From a virus (taxonomy: Duplodnaviria; Heunggongvirae; Uroviricota; Caudoviricetes), in IMG/VR virus record IMGVR_UViG_2859799533_000007: DNA of 23,282 bases; one strand, written 5' to 3'. A program made the position numbers and the translations under genes. How positions within the stretch are numbered: the stretch's first letter is position 1; each line of letters opens with the position of its first letter. This document shows positions 7,634 through 23,282 of this stretch, piece after piece. The notes beneath the pieces are model-generated. The model was given only the letters and a program-made list of their open reading frames with translations. It was not told where the DNA came from and ran no database searches.

Positions 7634-8305
7634 TTATCCCTGTCGCCCGATAACCACGACCTTTCCGCCCCCGCCTTCATCACGGGTGCTGATGTCCTGG
7701 GATATACGGCGGGAGCCAACCAGCATTTCCCCGTAAGGCACCGGCATCGGGTTCCCCTGGGCAATCATGTTATCCAGCGAGGAAAAGTACGTGTTCTGTC
7801 TGCCGTTATCCGTTGCGCGGTAATCCGGTGTTTTTGCCTTCGGGGCCAGCATCTGGGCCACACCGCCCAGAATCATGCTGGCTCCAAGTGAAAACAGCAT
7901 CGTGGTGGCAGAAAAACCACCGGCTGCCAGGGCTGAACCCCATAACGCCATTGATGCCCCGGCAGTGAAGAAAGAGCCCACGATGGCTGCCGCCCCCAAC
8001 ACAATCTGCAGTCCACCCTTTCCGGCCCCGGCCAGTCGCGGCACAATGTGGATGACCGTTCCCTCACCCAGCTGTTCGTGAAGACGGGCATACACCGCCT
8101 CCGGTGCCGTGTCATCACCGGCAATACGTATCTGGTACCAGCCTTCGTTCATCTGACGGCGAAAGCCCGGCATCTGCATCGACAGGGCGCGAATGGCTTC
8201 CGCTGCCGTGTTCACATACAGGCTGAGGCGGCGGCCAAATCGTTGCAAATCCCCGTGAAGGCAGATGGTGAAGCAGCTCACCGTTGCCGCAGTAAATGGT
8301 GGCAT
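7634..8305 (-). CDS. I: Tail assembly protein I
   Basis: …CLHGDLQRFGRRLSLYVNTAAEAIRALSMQMPGF…IHIVPRLAGAGKGG… resembles lambda I. Start chosen at the Met at 8305 (223 aa, as in lambda); the longer track ORF is read-through of the K overlap. Confidence 0.85.
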   Translation of the reverse strand: MPPFTAATVSCFTICLHGDLQRFGRRLSLYVNTAAEAIRALSMQMPGFRRQMNEGWYQIRIAGDDTAPEAVYARLHEQLGEGTVIHIVPRLAGAGKGGLQIVLGAAAIVGSFFTAGASMALWGSALAAGGFSATTMLFSLGASMILGGVAQMLAPKAKTPDYRATDNGRQNTYFSSLDNMIAQGNPMPVPYGEMLVGSRRISQDISTRDEGGGGKVVVIGRQG

Positions 8306-8874: not shown

Positions 8875-9573
8875 TTACTGCGAAAGTTTATTAATGGAAA
8901 GGAAACCGCCAAAATTGCCGACATTCCTGCGCAGTTCACACCCGCGCATGCACTTGCTGCATCTGTCCTTACGGATATCCGTGGTGGGTTTATCGAACTC
9001 ATCCGCCACAGCCCCGCCCGTGTAACCACACTCATCAGAGCGGTAGGTCCACATACAGGTGTTCGCCAGCATGATACGACCGGGAAACAGCGCCCCGTCC
9101 GTCTCGGTCGGTGTAGCCAGCACAAACGAGGCCGTCATGGCTGTCAGCTGCGACATCTGCTCCACCACCCAGCGGTCACTCAGCTCCTGCTCCGGGTCCG
9201 CCTCCGGATTGCCCGCAACGAAATTCACCGCATCCAGAAAACGGGCATACACCCGGCGGCGGACCACCGTGGCCCCCACCAGACTCTGCAGGTCTTCCGC
9301 CATCCCGGTGACCAGACCGAACAGATTGGACACCGTCAGCGACGGTCTGGCACTGCTGCCCCGGCCGTTCATCTCAAAGCCGCTGCCGTCAATCGGGTAT
9401 GCCTCATACTTACGCCCCTGCCAGGTGACCGGCTCCCCTTTTTCATTCAGCTCATTACAGAAAAAATACCGCTCACCACCCTGCACCGTCAGGTCGATTT
9501 CCCAGAGTACCACCCGCGGTGACTGCTCTGACTTAACCGACTCGTTCAGCCTTTCTTCGCGAATATCCTGCAT
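8875..9573 (-). CDS. L: Minor tail protein L
   Basis: 232-aa ORF MQDIREERLNESVKSEQSPRVVLWEIDLT… with the C-terminal Cys cluster typical of lambda L; start overlaps the M stop (ATGA). Confidence 0.9.
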   Translation of the reverse strand: MQDIREERLNESVKSEQSPRVVLWEIDLTVQGGERYFFCNELNEKGEPVTWQGRKYEAYPIDGSGFEMNGRGSSARPSLTVSNLFGLVTGMAEDLQSLVGATVVRRRVYARFLDAVNFVAGNPEADPEQELSDRWVVEQMSQLTAMTASFVLATPTETDGALFPGRIMLANTCMWTYRSDECGYTGGAVADEFDKPTTDIRKDRCSKCMRGCELRRNVGNFGGFLSINKLSQ

Positions 9574-17328: not shown

Positions 17329-18833
17329 TCATGGCATGGCCATGAGCATTTTCACGTCCGCATCACCGTCTGCTGACGTCTGTGACACGCCACCCCGCAC
17401 CGCTGCCGGTGAATGATTCGCCATGAAATGTTCAAACAGGGCGGTTGTGGATGCAGAGACCGGTTCGGCCTTACCTGATCCCGCAGCCAGCACCGCCCGG
17501 GCGTTCTCCACGGTCATTCCCGGGCAGGCCGCCAGTTTTTCAGCCTGCGCTTCTGCCCCTTTTGCCTCATCCAGGGCCATGATCTGATCACGAAGTGAGG
17601 GCCCGGCATCCGCCAGTGGTGCAGCCGCCAGGATCGGGCGGGCTTTTTCCACCGTCATCTCCGGCATCGCCGCCAGCGTTGCCGCCAGTTGTTCACGACC
17701 GTTCGCTTCTTCACACGCCATAATGCGATCGGCTTCACTCTGCGCGGATGCCACCGGCTGCTGCGGTGCCGCCGCGGCCAGAATCGCCCGGGCCTGTTCA
17801 ACGCTCATGCCCTGTTGCCCTGCCAGCATCGTGGCAAGCTGTTCACGTCCTTTCGCTTCCTGGCATGTCAGGATCCCCATCACTCGCTGGTTCTCCTGCA
17901 CGGCGGCTTCCGTTGCAGTTAATTGCGGCATAGTGCCTCCTCTGACATTACTGTTCAGCGCCGTGGCCATCACACTGATGGCATCCGACGCATTGATTAA
18001 TTCATCCGCCAGCCCGGCCTCAATGCCGGACTGACCTTCAAAAACAGCGGCCTCTGTTCCCGTGACTGCATCAACAGACAGACCGGTAAACATCGCCACT
18101 TTTTCGGCAAACATCCGGCGCGCCGCATCAATCCGCTGCTGCATGTCCTGGCGAACCTCTGCCGGCAACGCTTCAAACTGATTGCCATCCACCTTGTGCG
18201 CCCCTGAGTAAATCAGCGTGATATCCACACCGGCCTGCGCCAGATGACCGGCATAGCTGACATGGCTCATCATCACGCCAATGGAACCGATACGGGATGT
18301 CTGGGTAACCAGCCGTCGGGAGCAGGCCGACGCCAGCAGCATGGCCGCAGAACAGGCCGTGTCATTACACAGTGCCCAGACCGGCTTCTGCTGCCGGAGG
18401 CGGTAAATCATGTCAGCGCAGTCAAACACGCCGGCGGCCTGCCCGCCCGGACTGTCAATGTCCAGCAGTATGCCCCGCACCTGGCTATCTGCCATTGCCT
18501 GCTGAAGACAGGTGACAATGCCGTCATAGCCAGTCATTCCGGAAAATGGCCGCATCCCCCCAGCCGGTGCACCAGCGTGCCGGTCACCGGCAGTACCGCA
18601 ATACCGTTCACCACCCGGTAAACACGGGCCGGTCGTTTACCTCCGGCCATGTACTCGTCCGTTTCAGCCAGCATCCCGGGAGCATCAAGCTGTACCTGCT
18701 GTTGCGGTACCGAAAGACTTGCTGCCCCCATCTCGCGCCCCAGCGCGCAAAAGAAAACCCGCGCATAGGCGGGCTCCAGAAGCAGCGGTTCATTGAATGC
18801 TGCTGCAATAATGTGTGAAAGATTACGTCTCAC
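17329..18833 (-). pseudogene. C: Head maturation protease C with nested scaffold Nu3 (S49/ClpP-like), frameshifted
   Basis: N-terminal segment (…AAFNEPLLLEPAYARVFFCAL…) is in a different frame from the rest (…SGMTGYDGIVTCLQQA…KPVWALCNDTACSAA…). The frames join at the C6 run at 18556-18561. Confidence 0.85.
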
Positions 18834-19595
18834 GTGGTGTTGTCTCCTCTTCCGGCCTGCGACTCTCCGCTATCTGCTGCTGATACGCCTGCGCTATCCA
18901 CACCGGACGTGAGAGTCCGGCTTTTTCCCGCTCTGCAGATTCCCTGACCTGCTGGCAGAAAATGTCCTGATAATCCTCGCCCATCAGCGCCAGCTCTTTC
19001 TCATACGTGCTCAGTCCGGCCTCAATGCGCATCACTGATTCCTGAACCTCCTTGAGCCCGTCAATGGCCATTCTTCCGGCTCCAATCCACTCAGCCCGTG
19101 ACCAGGCTGATCGCGCCTGATAAAAATCAAACCGTGCCCGTGGCGGACGAATAATCCCCGAAGAAGTGCCTCTTCCAGCCAGCAGGAAAACATCTGCGTG
19201 GCCAGCCGGGACGCAATAAATTTTCGCCGCCCCATAAAATAGCGCCACGACTCATTGGCGGATGCGCGGGCACTTGAGTAACTGACCTTCGAGTAATCAC
19301 GGGACAACTGTTCGTAGGAAACGCCAAGACCGGCGGCGATATACCGCAGCAGCGCCTGTTCAAGCGCCGAAAATCCATTGTCTGAATCCTGCGCGGTCTG
19401 AAGTTTCAGATCATCACCGGGGAAAAGGTGCGGAATTTTGACACCGCCCAGCATCACGCTATTCGTGTCATACCAGGTGGAGAACTTATCCAGAATATTA
19501 ATAAGCGGATTATCCTTCTGCCCCTGCGGCGCACCGGCGATATATTCAAAGGCCTTTTCGGTATCAAGGTCACTTTCAATCGTCGCTGCATACAT
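18823..19595 (-). pseudogene. B: Portal protein B, 3' half only, with an internal frameshift
   Basis: Two frames carry portal-like sequence and join at the C4 run 19156-19159. Only ~257 codons are present (lambda B is 533 aa); upstream of 19595 the frame reads AT-rich non-coding sequence. Confidence 0.75.
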
Positions 19596-19783
19596 CGCCT
19601 TTATGAAAAGACAGGAAAAAATAAAATTTAAAAACAGTACATTACGAATGCTCAGACCTATCGTTTAAAGGAGTCGCAATACACACTGCAATACACGATT
19701 ATTTATAAGATGAGCGGCATCCGTCATAAAGCTGGTGGATGCTTTTTCTATGCATATATGCACAGTTTTAGTGGGCGTTAATG

Positions 19784-19807
19784 TCGATATAGGGATCCCC
19801 ATATCGA
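19784..19807. repeat. 24-bp near-perfect palindrome TCGATATAGGGATCCCCATATCGA (operator-like)
   Basis: Differs from its reverse complement at one symmetric position pair only. Confidence 0.6.
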
Positions 19808-20025
19808 GATTGGATACCAGGCTTTTTTAATCAGGCTGGTGGGCTTTACCTGTTTTGTATGAGTGGTCATCATGACCATGTCATAACAAAAACCCCATAT
19901 TCGTGGTTTTTCTGTGTCGGGCTATTCTGTCGTTGCTGTGCTGATTTGGCTGGTGGGCTGAATCATCATTACGGCGATGCAGCTATGTAGACGTTCCGGC
20001 CTCCTCAAATTGAGGATTGTGGAAG

Positions 20026-20187
20026 AATCAATGGGTTAGTCTTACTTTCCCGACATCCCCCAATGGGGGGTTTCGAAACAATCAATAGCTTAGGCTTACT
20101 TCCCCGATTTCCTGCATTGCAGGTTTTCGAAATAATCAATGGGTTAGGCCATCGTGCAATTTTGCACTTTGCCAGCCAGCGCAATGT
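20026..20187. repeat. Tandem array of three 54-bp direct repeats, each with an internal GC-rich hairpin
   Basis: Units begin AATCAAT at 20026, 20080 and 20134. Units 1 and 2 share ~40 of 54 positions, with the hairpin arms changed in a compensatory way (CCCCC-AAT-GGGGG versus CCTGCA-T-TGCAGG); unit 3 diverges after position 15. Confidence 0.7.
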
Positions 20188-20397
20188 CGCGTTATCAGTC
20201 CTCAGATGTGAGGGATGTAGCCAGCTTTTCCCCCAGTGGGGGATATCCAGCACCGACGGCTTAACTGTGCGTGCCAGCACAAGGTAGCCTTGAACTACTT
20301 ACTGCATCCCATCTTACAGGCCGTGCCTTCCTGCTTAACTTTTTGCAATGCAACAAGTCAGCCAGCGCAATTTTGCGTTATCGGGAATATCAGCAAG

Positions 20398-20679
20398 TTA
20401 CCGCCGCAATCGTTCCGGCTTCTTCCACTGGTAAGTATTTTTCGCGCTCTCCCTCCGTTGTTGAGAACGGCGACGATATGCCAGCAACTCAAGGACTCTT
20501 GTTCGTATGTTGCGCATATCCACGCCGTTAAGCTCAATACCGTCACGGCGCATCACCTCAGCCACTACACGCACATAATTATCTGCGGTCACGCTGTCCG
20601 GCTGCGTGGCCTGTTCGTCATGCTGCTTGCTGATTCCACAAGCACGGCGGATTAATCGCAGTATTTCGGATTCAGTCAT
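20398..20679 (-). CDS. Hypothetical small basic protein (93 aa)
   Basis: ATG-initiated ORF with coherent charged composition (MTESEILRLIRRACGISKQHDEQ…); weak RBS; I do not recognise a homologue. Confidence 0.4.
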   Translation of the reverse strand: MTESEILRLIRRACGISKQHDEQATQPDSVTADNYVRVVAEVMRRDGIELNGVDMRNIRTRVLELLAYRRRSQQRRESAKNTYQWKKPERLRR

Positions 20680-20803
20680 AGCGTACTACGTTACTTATCT
20701 TTATTCGGCTGCAACTTATCCGGTACGTTTCCGGCAGTTTCCATCAGATAATCGGACAGCTGAGGTGTACTGGCAATAGCGGACACTACCATTTGTTCTT
20801 TTT

Positions 20804-21622
20804 TTAAGCAGCCATCTGATGATATTTTTCCCTGAAGGCTGCCGGGGAGATATTCCCCAGACGAGAGTGACGACGCTGACGATTGTAGAAAATCTCAATG
20901 TATTCCCGTATTACTGAGATGGCTTCATCCCGGTTATTAAAACGATAGTGGCTCAGGCTCTCATTTTTCAGCGTTCCCCAGAAGCTTTCCATCGGAGCGT
21001 TGTCGTAACACTGACCTTTACGCGACATTGATGTTTTCAGACCAGACTGCTCCTGTATGACCCGGTAATCGTATGCGCAGTACTGTGAACCTCGATCAGA
21101 GTGGTGGATTAGCCCGGCAGGTGGGCGCTGGCTCCTGAGCGCCATAAACAGGGCTTTACCTGTCAGCTCTTTTGTCATGCGCTCTCCCATGGCGTAGCCG
21201 ACAATTTCGCACGTATAAACATCTTTGATGCCAGCGAGGTACAACCATCCCTCCTGTGTGGCAACATACGTCAGGTACGCCACCCAGACCTGATTTGGTG
21301 CTGTAGGAGCGAACGTCTGGTTCAGCAGATTTGGCGCAACTGGCAGATTGTGGTTCGGGTTCGTAGTCGCTCTGAACTTGCGTTTCTGCTTACAGCGTAG
21401 CCTTAGCTCCTTACGAAGACGTGCCAGTCGGTCACGACCAACGATGATGCCATTCTCTGCCAGCTCCGTCTGGAGCCGCCGGGTTCCATATGTTTCGCGA
21501 GTGCGGATATGTGCCACCTTAATCTCCAGTTTTAGCCGCTCATCACTTTGTTTTCTGTCTGAGGGTTCATGCTGTACCCAGTTGTAATAACCGCTCCTGG
21601 ATACACCAAATACCTGACACAT
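20804..21622 (-). CDS. IS3-family transposase OrfB (DDE domain)
   Basis: 272-aa ORF …HHSDRGSQYCAYDYRVIQEQSGLKTSMSRKGQCYDNAPMESFWGTLKNE…; the frame is open upstream toward the frameshift window. Confidence 0.9.
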   Translation of the reverse strand: MCQVFGVSRSGYYNWVQHEPSDRKQSDERLKLEIKVAHIRTRETYGTRRLQTELAENGIIVGRDRLARLRKELRLRCKQKRKFRATTNPNHNLPVAPNLLNQTFAPTAPNQVWVAYLTYVATQEGWLYLAGIKDVYTCEIVGYAMGERMTKELTGKALFMALRSQRPPAGLIHHSDRGSQYCAYDYRVIQEQSGLKTSMSRKGQCYDNAPMESFWGTLKNESLSHYRFNNRDEAISVIREYIEIFYNRQRRHSRLGNISPAAFREKYHQMAA

Positions 21623-21657
21623 CGCTTCAATGGGAAATTGTTGTCGCCATTGTTCGA

Positions 21658-21960
21658 TTAACGCGTATTTTTCAGCGACTCCTGTGCAAAATACGCTGTT
21701 GCTTTTTTTAATATATCTCGCTCAAGGCGAGCTTCATTTAACGCCTTACGCAGTTGCAGAATTTCAGATTCCAGTTCAGCCACCGTGCGGGAACCAGGAG
21801 TACCGAGCCCTTTTCTGGCGGCGGTAACCCATTGTCCTAAAGTGCCTTCAGGAAGGGATAATCGGGAAGCGCCTTCACTGATCGAAAGTTGATTTTCAAG
21901 AACCGTTCTGACAGCTTCGGCTTTGAACTCTTTAGAGTAACGTTGGTTTTTTCTGCTCAT
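21658..21960 (-). CDS. IS3-family transposase OrfA (helix-turn-helix plus leucine zipper)
   Basis: 100-aa ORF MSRKNQRYSKEFKAEAVRTVLENQLSISEGASRLSLPEGTLGQWV…; an A7G slippery run (plus-strand T7 at 21703-21709) sits near its 3' end. Confidence 0.9.
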   Translation of the reverse strand: MSRKNQRYSKEFKAEAVRTVLENQLSISEGASRLSLPEGTLGQWVTAARKGLGTPGSRTVAELESEILQLRKALNEARLERDILKKATAYFAQESLKNTR

Positions 21961-22115
21961 TATTAGCTCCTTCTGATGCCATTCTATTTCAGGAAGGAGT
22001 GTCCGTTAAACTCAGGCTACCTCAATCAGCGCCAGTCAGTCAGCCGGAGCAAAAACAGAAGCCCCACTCATTCCGGAACAACCTTCTTAATAACCCATTT
22101 CAACGAGAAAATCCT

Positions 22116-22460: not shown

Positions 22461-22620
22461 ATGTACCAGATGGAAAAAATCACAACAGGTGTGTCATACA
22501 CCCGTCAGCGGTGGGAACGGGCTACTGGTTCCTGCAGTTGCTGGACAGGGTTTCCCCGTCTCAGTGGGCGGCAATAGGCGTACTGGGGAGTCTGCTGTTT
22601 GGGCTGCTGACATATCTGAC
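22461..22620 (+). pseudogene. Class II holin (phage 21 / Stx-phage S-type), frameshifted and cut by an IS element
   Basis: [14 protein letters not shown] in one frame continues as [39 protein letters not shown] in another; the shift is at the C3 run 22501-22503. The dual-start MYQM motif and transmembrane core are typical; the C-terminus is replaced by IS sequence from 22621. Confidence 0.75.

Positions 22621-23282
<662 letters not shown>

Follow-up and report, generated by a model that had tools for sequence, protein, structure and literature searches.

A satellite end within a prophage portal gene

We analysed a 23,282-nucleotide stretch of tailed-phage DNA (IMG/VR record IMGVR_UViG_2859799533_000007; the whole stretch is called the window here), in which an array of tandem 54-bp units begins at position 19996, each unit pairing a perfect palindrome with a consensus site for integration host factor (IHF). 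The array lies in non-coding DNA at one end of a phage satellite, a phage-inducible chromosomal island (PICI), that is integrated in the portal gene of a lambda-like helper prophage. Positions 19900–20420 are 99.8% identical to loci in many complete Escherichia coli genomes, for example EC93, whose locus (L001) is the ortholog with an intact satellite and was used to annotate the window.

According to its annotation, the EC93 prophage has a portal gene split by an ∼11-kb element. This element encodes an integrase, AlpA, a Bro-N protein, an Icd-like protein, a DUF4222 protein, a D5-type primase-helicase, and a single-stranded DNA-binding protein, together with a lambda-E-type capsid protein, a lambda-D-type decoration protein, a second AlpA-like helix-turn-helix (HTH) protein, a small terminase (TerS), and a 93-aa protein. 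Pfam supports these domain assignments, the small terminase matching Nu1 only in its C-terminal part. With an integrase, AlpA, a primase, a late zone, and attachment (att) repeats inside a helper late gene, the element is a helper-embedded PICI (HE-PICI) of the type that Tommasini et al. 2023 (PMC10111431) reported. The array sits within the ∼800-bp non-coding satellite end distal to the integrase gene (int), and PGAP annotates no gene over it. Of the satellite, the window keeps the last ∼1.2 kb, from attL through the non-coding end and the 93-aa gene to 70 nt of the terminase gene. A sequence-only reading of the window had taken this DNA to replace the 5' region of a phage head gene; the EC93 annotation identifies it instead as the end of a satellite integrated in the portal gene.

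Tandem units of palindrome and IHF site

Tandem Repeats Finder reports a 54-bp period with 2.3 copies and 78% matches over 20026–20149, and a repeat search resolves three complete in-register copies at 19996, 20050, and 20104, the latter two being 72% and 65% identical to the first. The three head-to-tail 54-bp units of the sequence-only reading are therefore confirmed, but the array starts 30 bp to the left of where that reading placed it, at 19996, and a third palindrome, CCTCAAATTGAGG at 20003, had been overlooked.

At equivalent positions the units hold perfect 13-bp palindromes that differ from one another, and the conserved flank of every unit is a perfect IHF consensus (WATCAANNNNTTR), at 20026, 20080, and 20134. 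All three units are oriented on the plus strand. Unit 1 (19996–20049) combines CCTCAAATTGAGG (20003–20015) with AATCAATGGGTTA (20026–20038), Unit 2 (20050–20103) combines CCCCCAATGGGGG (20057–20069) with AATCAATAGCTTA (20080–20092), and Unit 3 (20104–20157) combines CCTGCATTGCAGG (20111–20123) with AATCAATGGGTTA (20134–20146). The three palindromes are predicted operators of the 'VKRT', 'VKQS', and 'VK(V/I)S' classes, respectively, of the phage protein Roi, and a fourth predicted Roi-type operator, CCCCCAGTGGGGG of the VKQS class with a central G, follows at 20230–20242 without a canonical IHF site. In all three units, 17 bp separate the centre of the palindrome from the IHF site. Positions 3/11 and 4/10 of the 13-mer change jointly between units, in agreement with the earlier remark that the hairpin changes with its pairing kept, and the palindromes quoted with that remark (CCCCCAATGGGGG, CCTGCATTGCAGG, GTGCAATTTTGCAC, and CCCCCAGTGGGGG) are all present and perfect.

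Three of the four IHF consensus matches in the window fall in the array, against 0.57 expected window-wide. Perfect palindromes with 6-bp arms number 10 in 19590–20420 versus 0.8 expected (about twelve-fold), and 21 versus ∼22 expected in the remaining 22.4 kb. An open reading frame (ORF) of 74 aa at 20063–20287 spans the units; it matches no Pfam family, and its frame is not retained in other arrays. A promoter and terminator scan found no promoter-like site flanking the array and no terminator on any operator palindrome, its single weak terminator match (minus strand, 20154–20137) covering the third IHF site and the edge of GTGCAATTTTGCAC. The motif CCTCAGATGTGAGGGATGTAGCCA (20200–20223) also occurs around arrays elsewhere, at differing positions (L003 ∼9290–9310, L005 ∼7930–7955), and may be another mobile cassette.

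The units match an internal segment of phage roi genes

In sensitive BLAST searches, single units were also found inside annotated phage antirepressor genes, for which the name in phage collections is roi. The units correspond to roi nucleotides ∼123–176, with 89–96% identity over ∼50 nt to genes of lambdoid phages, at odds with the earlier description of the repeat as not lambda-like. HK022 Roi has a Rha-like N-terminal and a KilAC C-terminal domain, and the protein reportedly binds a site in its own gene near an IHF site, with IHF stabilising the binding. Roi binds DNA, and in hosts deficient in IHF it blocks lytic growth (PMC4587872; also PMC3430580).

The three units match different roi alleles. 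Unit 1 shares 94–96% identity over 50 nt with roi of phi330, Lahn2, and JLK-2012 (encoding the peptide ..HPQIEDCGRINGLG..), and Unit 2 shares 88.7% over 53 nt with the roi genes of VT2-Sakai, HK629, and Stx1a phages (peptide ..NPPMVVFEKINNLG..). Unit 3 has the palindrome core of HK022 roi (phage-gene peptide ..LPALQVFEKINNLG..) and is closer to an IMG/VR class (L059–L061) whose roi genes have the same palindrome, spacer type, and IHF site. The palindromes CCTCAAATTGAGG, CCCCCAATGG(G/T)GG, and CCTGCATTGCAGG are found in roi classes B, A, and C', respectively. Each of four roi classes carries a class-specific palindrome at nt 130–142 and the gene's sole IHF consensus at nt 153–165, again with 17 bp from palindrome centre to IHF site. 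Across the 40.7-kb HK022 genome, the 11-mer CTGCATTGCAG occurs once, within roi, its centre 17 bp before the genome's only plus-strand IHF consensus. Satellites usually carry the perfect CCCCCAATGGGGG, and the common phage allele carries CCCCCAATGGTGG.

Among Logan and NCBI contigs, two loci (L271 and L274) encode short Roi-like Rha proteins of 148–170 aa without KilAC; their genes directly follow a YdaS/Cro-like gene in the prophage immunity region and contain the same intragenic palindrome and IHF site. The module is thus not limited to roi genes of the nin region.

Palindrome class covaries with a Roi helix

A survey of 83 roi genes and 120 representative proteins yielded 53 distinct segments running from the HTH to YVFEG. 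Across these segments, the peptide encoded at the palindrome can be predicted from the two variable positions in helix ..V-K-x-x-I.. of the protein. Helix RT goes with peptide PQIE and operator DNA CTCAAATTGAG (fit 18/19), QS with PP(M/L)(G/V) and CCCCAATGGGG (8/9), RS with P(M/L)A and CGCCAATGGCG (5/8), and VS or IS with A(L/M)Q and CTGCATTGCAG (12/14). The association persists despite shuffled linkers and downstream blocks, the RT class alone having 12 linkers and 8 downstream blocks. The DNA of four further alleles carries the predicted palindromes, including CGCCAATGGCG in VKRS alleles and CCCCAATGGGG in a VKQS allele. Two unit types seen first in satellites, CCGCCAATGGCTG and TTCGCCGCTGGCGAA (the latter by its CGCC..GGCG arms), have cognate roi alleles (L272 and L271), and the prediction that satellite-only unit types should have such alleles is borne out.

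The AlphaFold (AF2) model of the Roi N-terminal domain is a winged helix-turn-helix (wHTH) with a predicted local distance difference test score of ∼90 over residues 11–90, in which the covarying residues 30–31 lie on the second helix (25–37). A PDB sequence search with this domain found no significant relative. The palindrome appears to track the recognition helix as an operator would. The sequence-only reading had offered an array of protein-binding sites as one possibility, and the match of the palindromes to intragenic roi sites, together with their covariation with the predicted Roi recognition helix, points to operators of this kind.

Rha-type cassettes

A second type of cassette lies at 20359–20400 (plus strand), where the palindrome GCGCAATTTTGCGT (20365–20378) is followed by the IHF-like TATCAGCAAGTTA (20388–20400), abutting the stop codon of the 93-aa gene. 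The IHF-like site has one mismatch to the consensus, with the palindrome centre 16.5 bp before it; in other PICIs the IHF site of this unit is perfect (TATCAACCAGTTA). Many canonical rha genes contain GCGCAATTTTGCG(C/T), then after 8–11 nt WATCA(A/G)NNNNTTA (WATCANNNNNTTA), a composite that encodes (E/Q)RNFA....IN(E/D)L right after the HTH ..H.DV(L/M)(K/R)AI.., and the palindrome CGCAATTTTGCG is also found in rha genes. Exact-palindrome scans of IMG/VR returned mostly chance matches, and filtering them gave further PICI arrays and this link to rha. Because the same composite lies inside canonical rha genes, we read 20359–20400 as a Rha-type cassette, and the position of the composite is homologous to that of the Roi site. 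A passage of PMC4936722 citing Henthorn & Friedman states that rha genes harm lytic growth without IHF and that IHF regulates rha.

The motif reported earlier as present twice is confirmed as 24 nt with 92% identity at 20173–20196 and 20359–20382. Its first copy (CAGCCAGCGCAATGTCGCGTTATC, plus strand) is a degenerate partial Rha-type copy that forms the left border of a 186-bp duplication or insertion, a segment absent from arrays L115 and L119. The 14-bp palindrome GTGCAATTTTGCAC (20154–20167) differs from the Rha-type palindrome by one symmetric change and is a symmetric Rha-type variant with no IHF consensus after it. At its position in other PICIs it is conserved as GTGCAA(A/T)TTTGCAC; no cognate gene for it was found.

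Arrays at the ends of other PICIs

We compared 21 distinct versions of the region, with further ones added later. Arrays hold one to five units in shuffled order, and palindromes and spacers recombine (e.g. a class-A palindrome with a class-B spacer). Units with perfect palindromes, drawn from 20 distinct PICI arrays, invariably have 17 bp from the middle of the palindrome to the IHF core that follows, and the 10-bp spacer between palindrome and core takes at least seven sequences, mixed between classes. The spacing between units ranges from 43 to 187 bp and is not always 54 bp.

This last observation bears on a purely architectural role, in which phased IHF sites would bend or compact the satellite end as an insulator or as an aid to recombination or packaging, the palindromes being incidental. 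Three perfect consensus sites at an exact 54-bp phasing, about five helical turns, are what such a role would call for, and IHF is the sole factor common to all hosts and helpers. The variable spacing in other arrays does not suit it, however, and the palindromes, although unneeded for an IHF role, are perfect, class-specific, and at a fixed distance, and are kept even in units with degenerate IHF cores. We consider an IHF-only element improbable.

The array is always the last feature before the int-distal att site. It is preceded by the 93-aa gene in most PICIs, by a capsid gene in the clpS-side type, and by perC in EcCIMP1-like islands. The host PICIs are found in the portal gene, in the capsid-E gene, beside clpS, beside dinD, and between proA and yagU, and they differ in integrase, primase, att site, and helper packaging type. 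Tblastn matches to Portal_C adjoin arrays in many loci. When the array alone served as query, 654 of 5426 complete E. coli genomes gave a match, which in 196 of these covered 80% or more of the query length; roi genes themselves account for some of the matches, and the median number of array places per genome is one. A pattern scan of genome contigs gave only chance matches in unrelated phyla.

In phages the site lies inside the coding sequence of the Roi or Rha protein served, and the satellite copies do not share this setting; they are non-coding. Tblastn of the PICI loci finds only Roi residues ∼37–67, which are the units, and no HTH or KilAC part, and the satellites encode no Rha-domain protein. 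An in-frame stop interrupts the roi frame in L002, and units 43 bp apart, not a multiple of three, break it in L003.

Fragments of helper roi that were captured, duplicated by slippage, and left as functionless recombination scars would explain the high identity to roi segments, and PICIs are known to capture helper genes (PMC10111431). Two arrays (L135 and L136) keep extra roi-coding flank (GGTGTTATCCGGCTT), and in the window the roi frame is open across all three units, within the ORF at 20063–20287. Yet only the 54-bp site-bearing segment is present, from several alleles and head-to-tail in register, and the palindrome, the 17-bp spacing, and the IHF core are kept while the spacer varies. 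The broken frames of L002 and L003, the same terminal position in unrelated PICI lineages, and the spread of matches over the genomes counted above also argue against neutral scars, which we judge unlikely. The suggestion that the repeat might prove to be a degraded piece of a known gene accordingly holds to the extent that the units are homologous to a gene fragment, and fails in that no other roi part accompanies the reiterated segment.

In PerC-type PICIs the array is inverted relative to the satellite genes, which argues for an orientation-independent role at the DNA level. The same inversion in EcCIMP1-type islands leaves no consistently transcribed strand for a structured RNA, which the sequence-only reading had also entertained, or for a terminator array, whether as a small RNA, as tandem terminators, or as an antisense to helper roi mRNA. 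Hairpins followed by T-runs on the plus strand, fold z-scores of about −2.6 to −2.8, and satellite transcription antisense to roi in window-type PICIs would suit an RNA. Both strands fold equally well, however (z −2.6 and −2.8), and this symmetry makes the folding uninformative; the stems are only 5–6 bp with loops of 1–3 nt, and the operator palindromes drew no terminator call. Rfam gave no match at the gathering score or at E ≤ 1, and symmetric changes in DNA palindromes track a protein's recognition helix. An RNA is, in our view, very unlikely, and we reject it on the absence of an Rfam match, the equal strand scores, and the variable orientation.

Features around the array

A C-terminal fragment of the portal gene of the lambda-like helper prophage, cut by the satellite, occupies 18823–19602 on the minus strand (EC93 annotation and tblastn with Portal_C). 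Continuous in EC93, it appears in the window as overlapping ORFs at 18823–19248 and 19032–19595; the window copy is probably frameshifted, and the prophage looks decayed. The junction of portal gene and satellite holds the att core CATACATCGCCTT (19590–19602), which matches the other EC93 end (L001 ∼22577–22589) at 12 of 13 positions, both EC93 junctions sharing the 13-bp core CATA(C/A)ATCGCCTT. Two direct repeats of arm type, GCAATACAC (19676–19684 and 19688–19696, plus strand), also occur near the int-proximal EC93 end (L001 22400) and are probably attP arm sites.

Tandem repeats with IHF sites occur in replication origins, in cosB, and in attP, and the array lies ∼300 bp from the TerS gene and ∼400 bp from att, so that an iteron origin, a cos or pac packaging site, or an extended attP might be considered. 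PICIs that differ in integrase, primase, and helper packaging type nevertheless have the same array. In Gram-negative PICIs the origin directly follows the 3' end of pri-rep and has a set of iterons on each side of an AT-rich stretch (PMC6092414). Here the capsid and terminase genes separate the array from the primase gene, ∼4 kb away; on this position we reject an origin and regard the iterons proposed from the sequence as unlikely. The cosN cohesive end GGGCGGCGACCT has no match with two or fewer mismatches in 19590–20420. In EC93 the satellite cosQ–cosN (L001 13446–13511) is 62/66 identical to the helper cos, contains GGGCGGCGACCT exactly (cosN at L001 13468), and lies between the AlpA-like gene and TerS, in agreement with the published PICI cos layout (PMC9026076). 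This segment is absent from the window, and with no cosN in the region and the real cos elsewhere in EC93, a cos site is ruled out. The attP arm region is excluded by distance, the arm repeats GCAATACAC lying ∼75–100 bp from the core and the array 400–560 bp away. Together, these origin, packaging, and attachment functions have very little probability. The small terminase gene lies ∼130 bp beyond the satellite cos; its product matches Nu1 only in the C-terminal, large-terminase-binding part and probably redirects the helper large terminase to a different cosB.

A span of 226 bp holds three co-oriented Chi sites (19731–19738, 19835–19842, and 19949–19956, plus strand), each inside a hairpin or repeat module; no other Chi octamer occurs in the 23-kb window on either strand. 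Their orientation is that met by RecBCD entering from the cos/TerS end, ∼1.5 kb rightward in the intact satellite, and identical Chi modules stand beside the arrays of other PICIs (L006, L121, and L133). The Chi cluster could suggest that the units are homology pads, roi-like stretches through which phage Red or host RecA would recombine the satellite with its helper to form cointegrates or capture genes. The ∼50-nt identities of 89–96% with roi and the mosaic exchange evident between units and roi alleles would fit. Mismatches every ∼10 nt make the units poor substrates, though, and a fixed palindrome and IHF site with a variable spacer are the opposite of what selection for homology would leave. 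The polarity of Chi is established, and from it we infer that these sites would stimulate recombination leftward, away from the array. Homology pads are accordingly a quite improbable explanation.

Also in the satellite end are a 32-bp imperfect palindrome (AATGTCGATATAGGGA/TCCCCATATCGAGATT, 19780–19811), found by repeat search, and a perfect 13-bp palindrome, GGTCATCATGACC (19865–19877), followed by a bidirectional terminator-like hairpin, AAAAACCCCATATTCGTGGTTTTT (19888–19911). The former is repeated up to three times in arrays of the L006 type (clpS-side PICIs), with a Chi-containing module after each copy; the stretch 19865–19911 alone is common to other strains, e.g. ATCC 25922, at ∼92%.

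To the right of the array, the last satellite gene (20398–20679, minus strand) encodes the basic 93-aa protein (phrog_1561), the usual neighbour of the array across PICI lineages, which belongs to no Pfam family. Its stop codon overlaps the last IHF-like site, and a functional link between this gene and the array is possible. The 3' remnant of the Nu1-like small terminase gene (20691–20760, minus strand), placed by offset from the EC93 annotation and by the Pfam Phage_Nu1 match of the EC93 protein, is truncated by IS600 (20761–22024; 99% matches to annotated IS600), which removed the rest of the satellite from the window, including cos and the capsid, primase, and integrase genes. Beyond IS600 follow ∼600 bp of a phage lysis region (DUF826, holin, and DUF1378; 85% identity) and an IS3-family element (ISEc52/IS911-like) that extends to the window end at 23282. 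The satellite body has been deleted or rearranged via insertion sequences.

A candidate docking or decoy set for helper regulators

We consider it reasonably probable that the array is a multi-specificity docking or decoy set for helper Roi and Rha proteins and host IHF, carried at the distal end of the PICI. Each cassette would copy the autoregulatory site within a helper roi or rha gene, a dyad operator for the winged-helix Roi or Rha protein with an IHF site 17 bp on. The three window units would serve three Roi specificity classes, with a fourth Roi-type operator and one or two Rha-type cassettes after them. When a helper is induced or infects, delayed-early Roi or Rha dimers would bind the cognate satellite cassette together with IHF. 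With one site per phage and several on a high-copy satellite, the array would compete for Roi and Rha and could either disturb Roi autoregulation as a decoy or sense the activity of the helper, and several specificities per array would let one satellite engage many helpers. Most likely the array would serve as a decoy or docking site of multiple specificity and thereby perturb or read the helper Roi/Rha circuit. A wider proposal, that E. coli PICIs hold a library of DNA mimics of helper Roi/Rha operators with IHF sites through which they read or rewire the early lytic programme of the helper, is more tentative, and we regard it as doubtful at present.

Several observations weigh against this account. 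That the palindrome is the Roi site is inferred from its covariation with the helix and its uniqueness in a phage genome, and helix and palindrome are only ∼15 codons apart, so that part of their association could be linkage in one mosaic block, against which the many linkers and downstream blocks argue. A PDB fold search with the Roi N-terminal domain gave weak wHTH matches only (E > 0.08). Some units have degenerate IHF cores or palindromes. The resident EC93 helper has no intact roi, and a within-genome match of array class to helper class is therefore not demonstrable there. Against a sensor in particular, no operators occur elsewhere in the satellites and none near alpA or any satellite promoter; with no promoter by the array either, a direct transcriptional sensor lacks an obvious target.

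Relation to known systems

The HE-PICI carrier and the Roi/IHF site within phage roi are already known. No account of such an array turned up in a literature search that included the papers on HE-PICIs, EcCIMP1, and Gram-negative PICIs, text searches of PMC10111431 and PMC11773190 found no mention of it, and tandem, multi-class, non-coding cassettes of operator and IHF site at PICI ends are, as far as we could find, new. The window-type satellite resembles the published HE-PICIs in having int, AlpA, a Bro zone, a primase, and a late zone with captured capsid and terminase genes, and in lying in a portal gene co-oriented with the helper late genes (PMC10111431). The same array follows perC in an EcCIMP1-like island (EcCIMP1-type PICI, PMC11773190).

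On the phage side, the closest counterparts are the intragenic HK022 roi site and the IHF-regulated rha genes of phi80 and P22. The Roi-type module is the same, with a class-specific palindrome whose centre lies 17 bp from the IHF core, a 10-bp spacer, and WATCAANNNNTTR, and the Rha-type unit matches canonical rha genes. In phages the module occurs as one copy per genome inside the gene of the binding protein, whereas the satellite carries 3–5 copies of different specificities, in tandem and non-coding, without a roi or rha gene.

Among bacterial repeats, repetitive extragenic palindromic (REP) sequences are GC-rich imperfect palindromes of ∼35 bp found in about a hundred extragenic places per genome. 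The RIP/RIB elements (bacterial interspersed mosaic elements, BIME-1, with an IHF site between two REP palindromes) share with the array the alternation of palindrome and IHF site in non-coding DNA. The array differs in its 13–14-bp palindromes, its match to roi, its location at PICI ends, and its median of one place per genome, and by palindrome length and copy number it does not belong to the RIP/RIB family. The sopC region of F (12 × 43 bp, an inverted repeat in each) likewise consists of tandem units with one dyad-symmetric protein site. All sopC units present an identical site to a single protein, whereas in the array the sites differ and the IHF flank is constant.

The interplay of Stl and dUTPase in Staphylococcus aureus pathogenicity islands, the activation of P4 by P2 Cox, and the pairing of PICI Rpp with TerS likewise match a satellite feature to a diversifying helper component. 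In these known interactions, satellite proteins bind helper proteins, whereas here DNA sites would mimic a helper operator. The multiple specificities within one array suggest an arms race.

Should binding prove absent, the analysis would still account for an odd repeat and correct the local annotation, and in many E. coli PICIs the array can be used to recognise the distal end by sequence. The analysis also yields a simple candidate recognition code for Roi, of two recognition-helix residues against two operator positions, and assigns the intragenic sites of Roi and Rha to a common position within one protein domain, linking two old phage genes that are lethal without IHF. If the operator-mimic array is real, it would engage a helper regulator at the DNA level with a multi-helper range built in. 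A library of such mimics, if confirmed, would make Roi diversification against matching cassettes an arms race fought with binding sites. The helper signal or activator of Gram-negative PICIs is still unidentified (PMC6092414), and such a library could bear on what that signal is.

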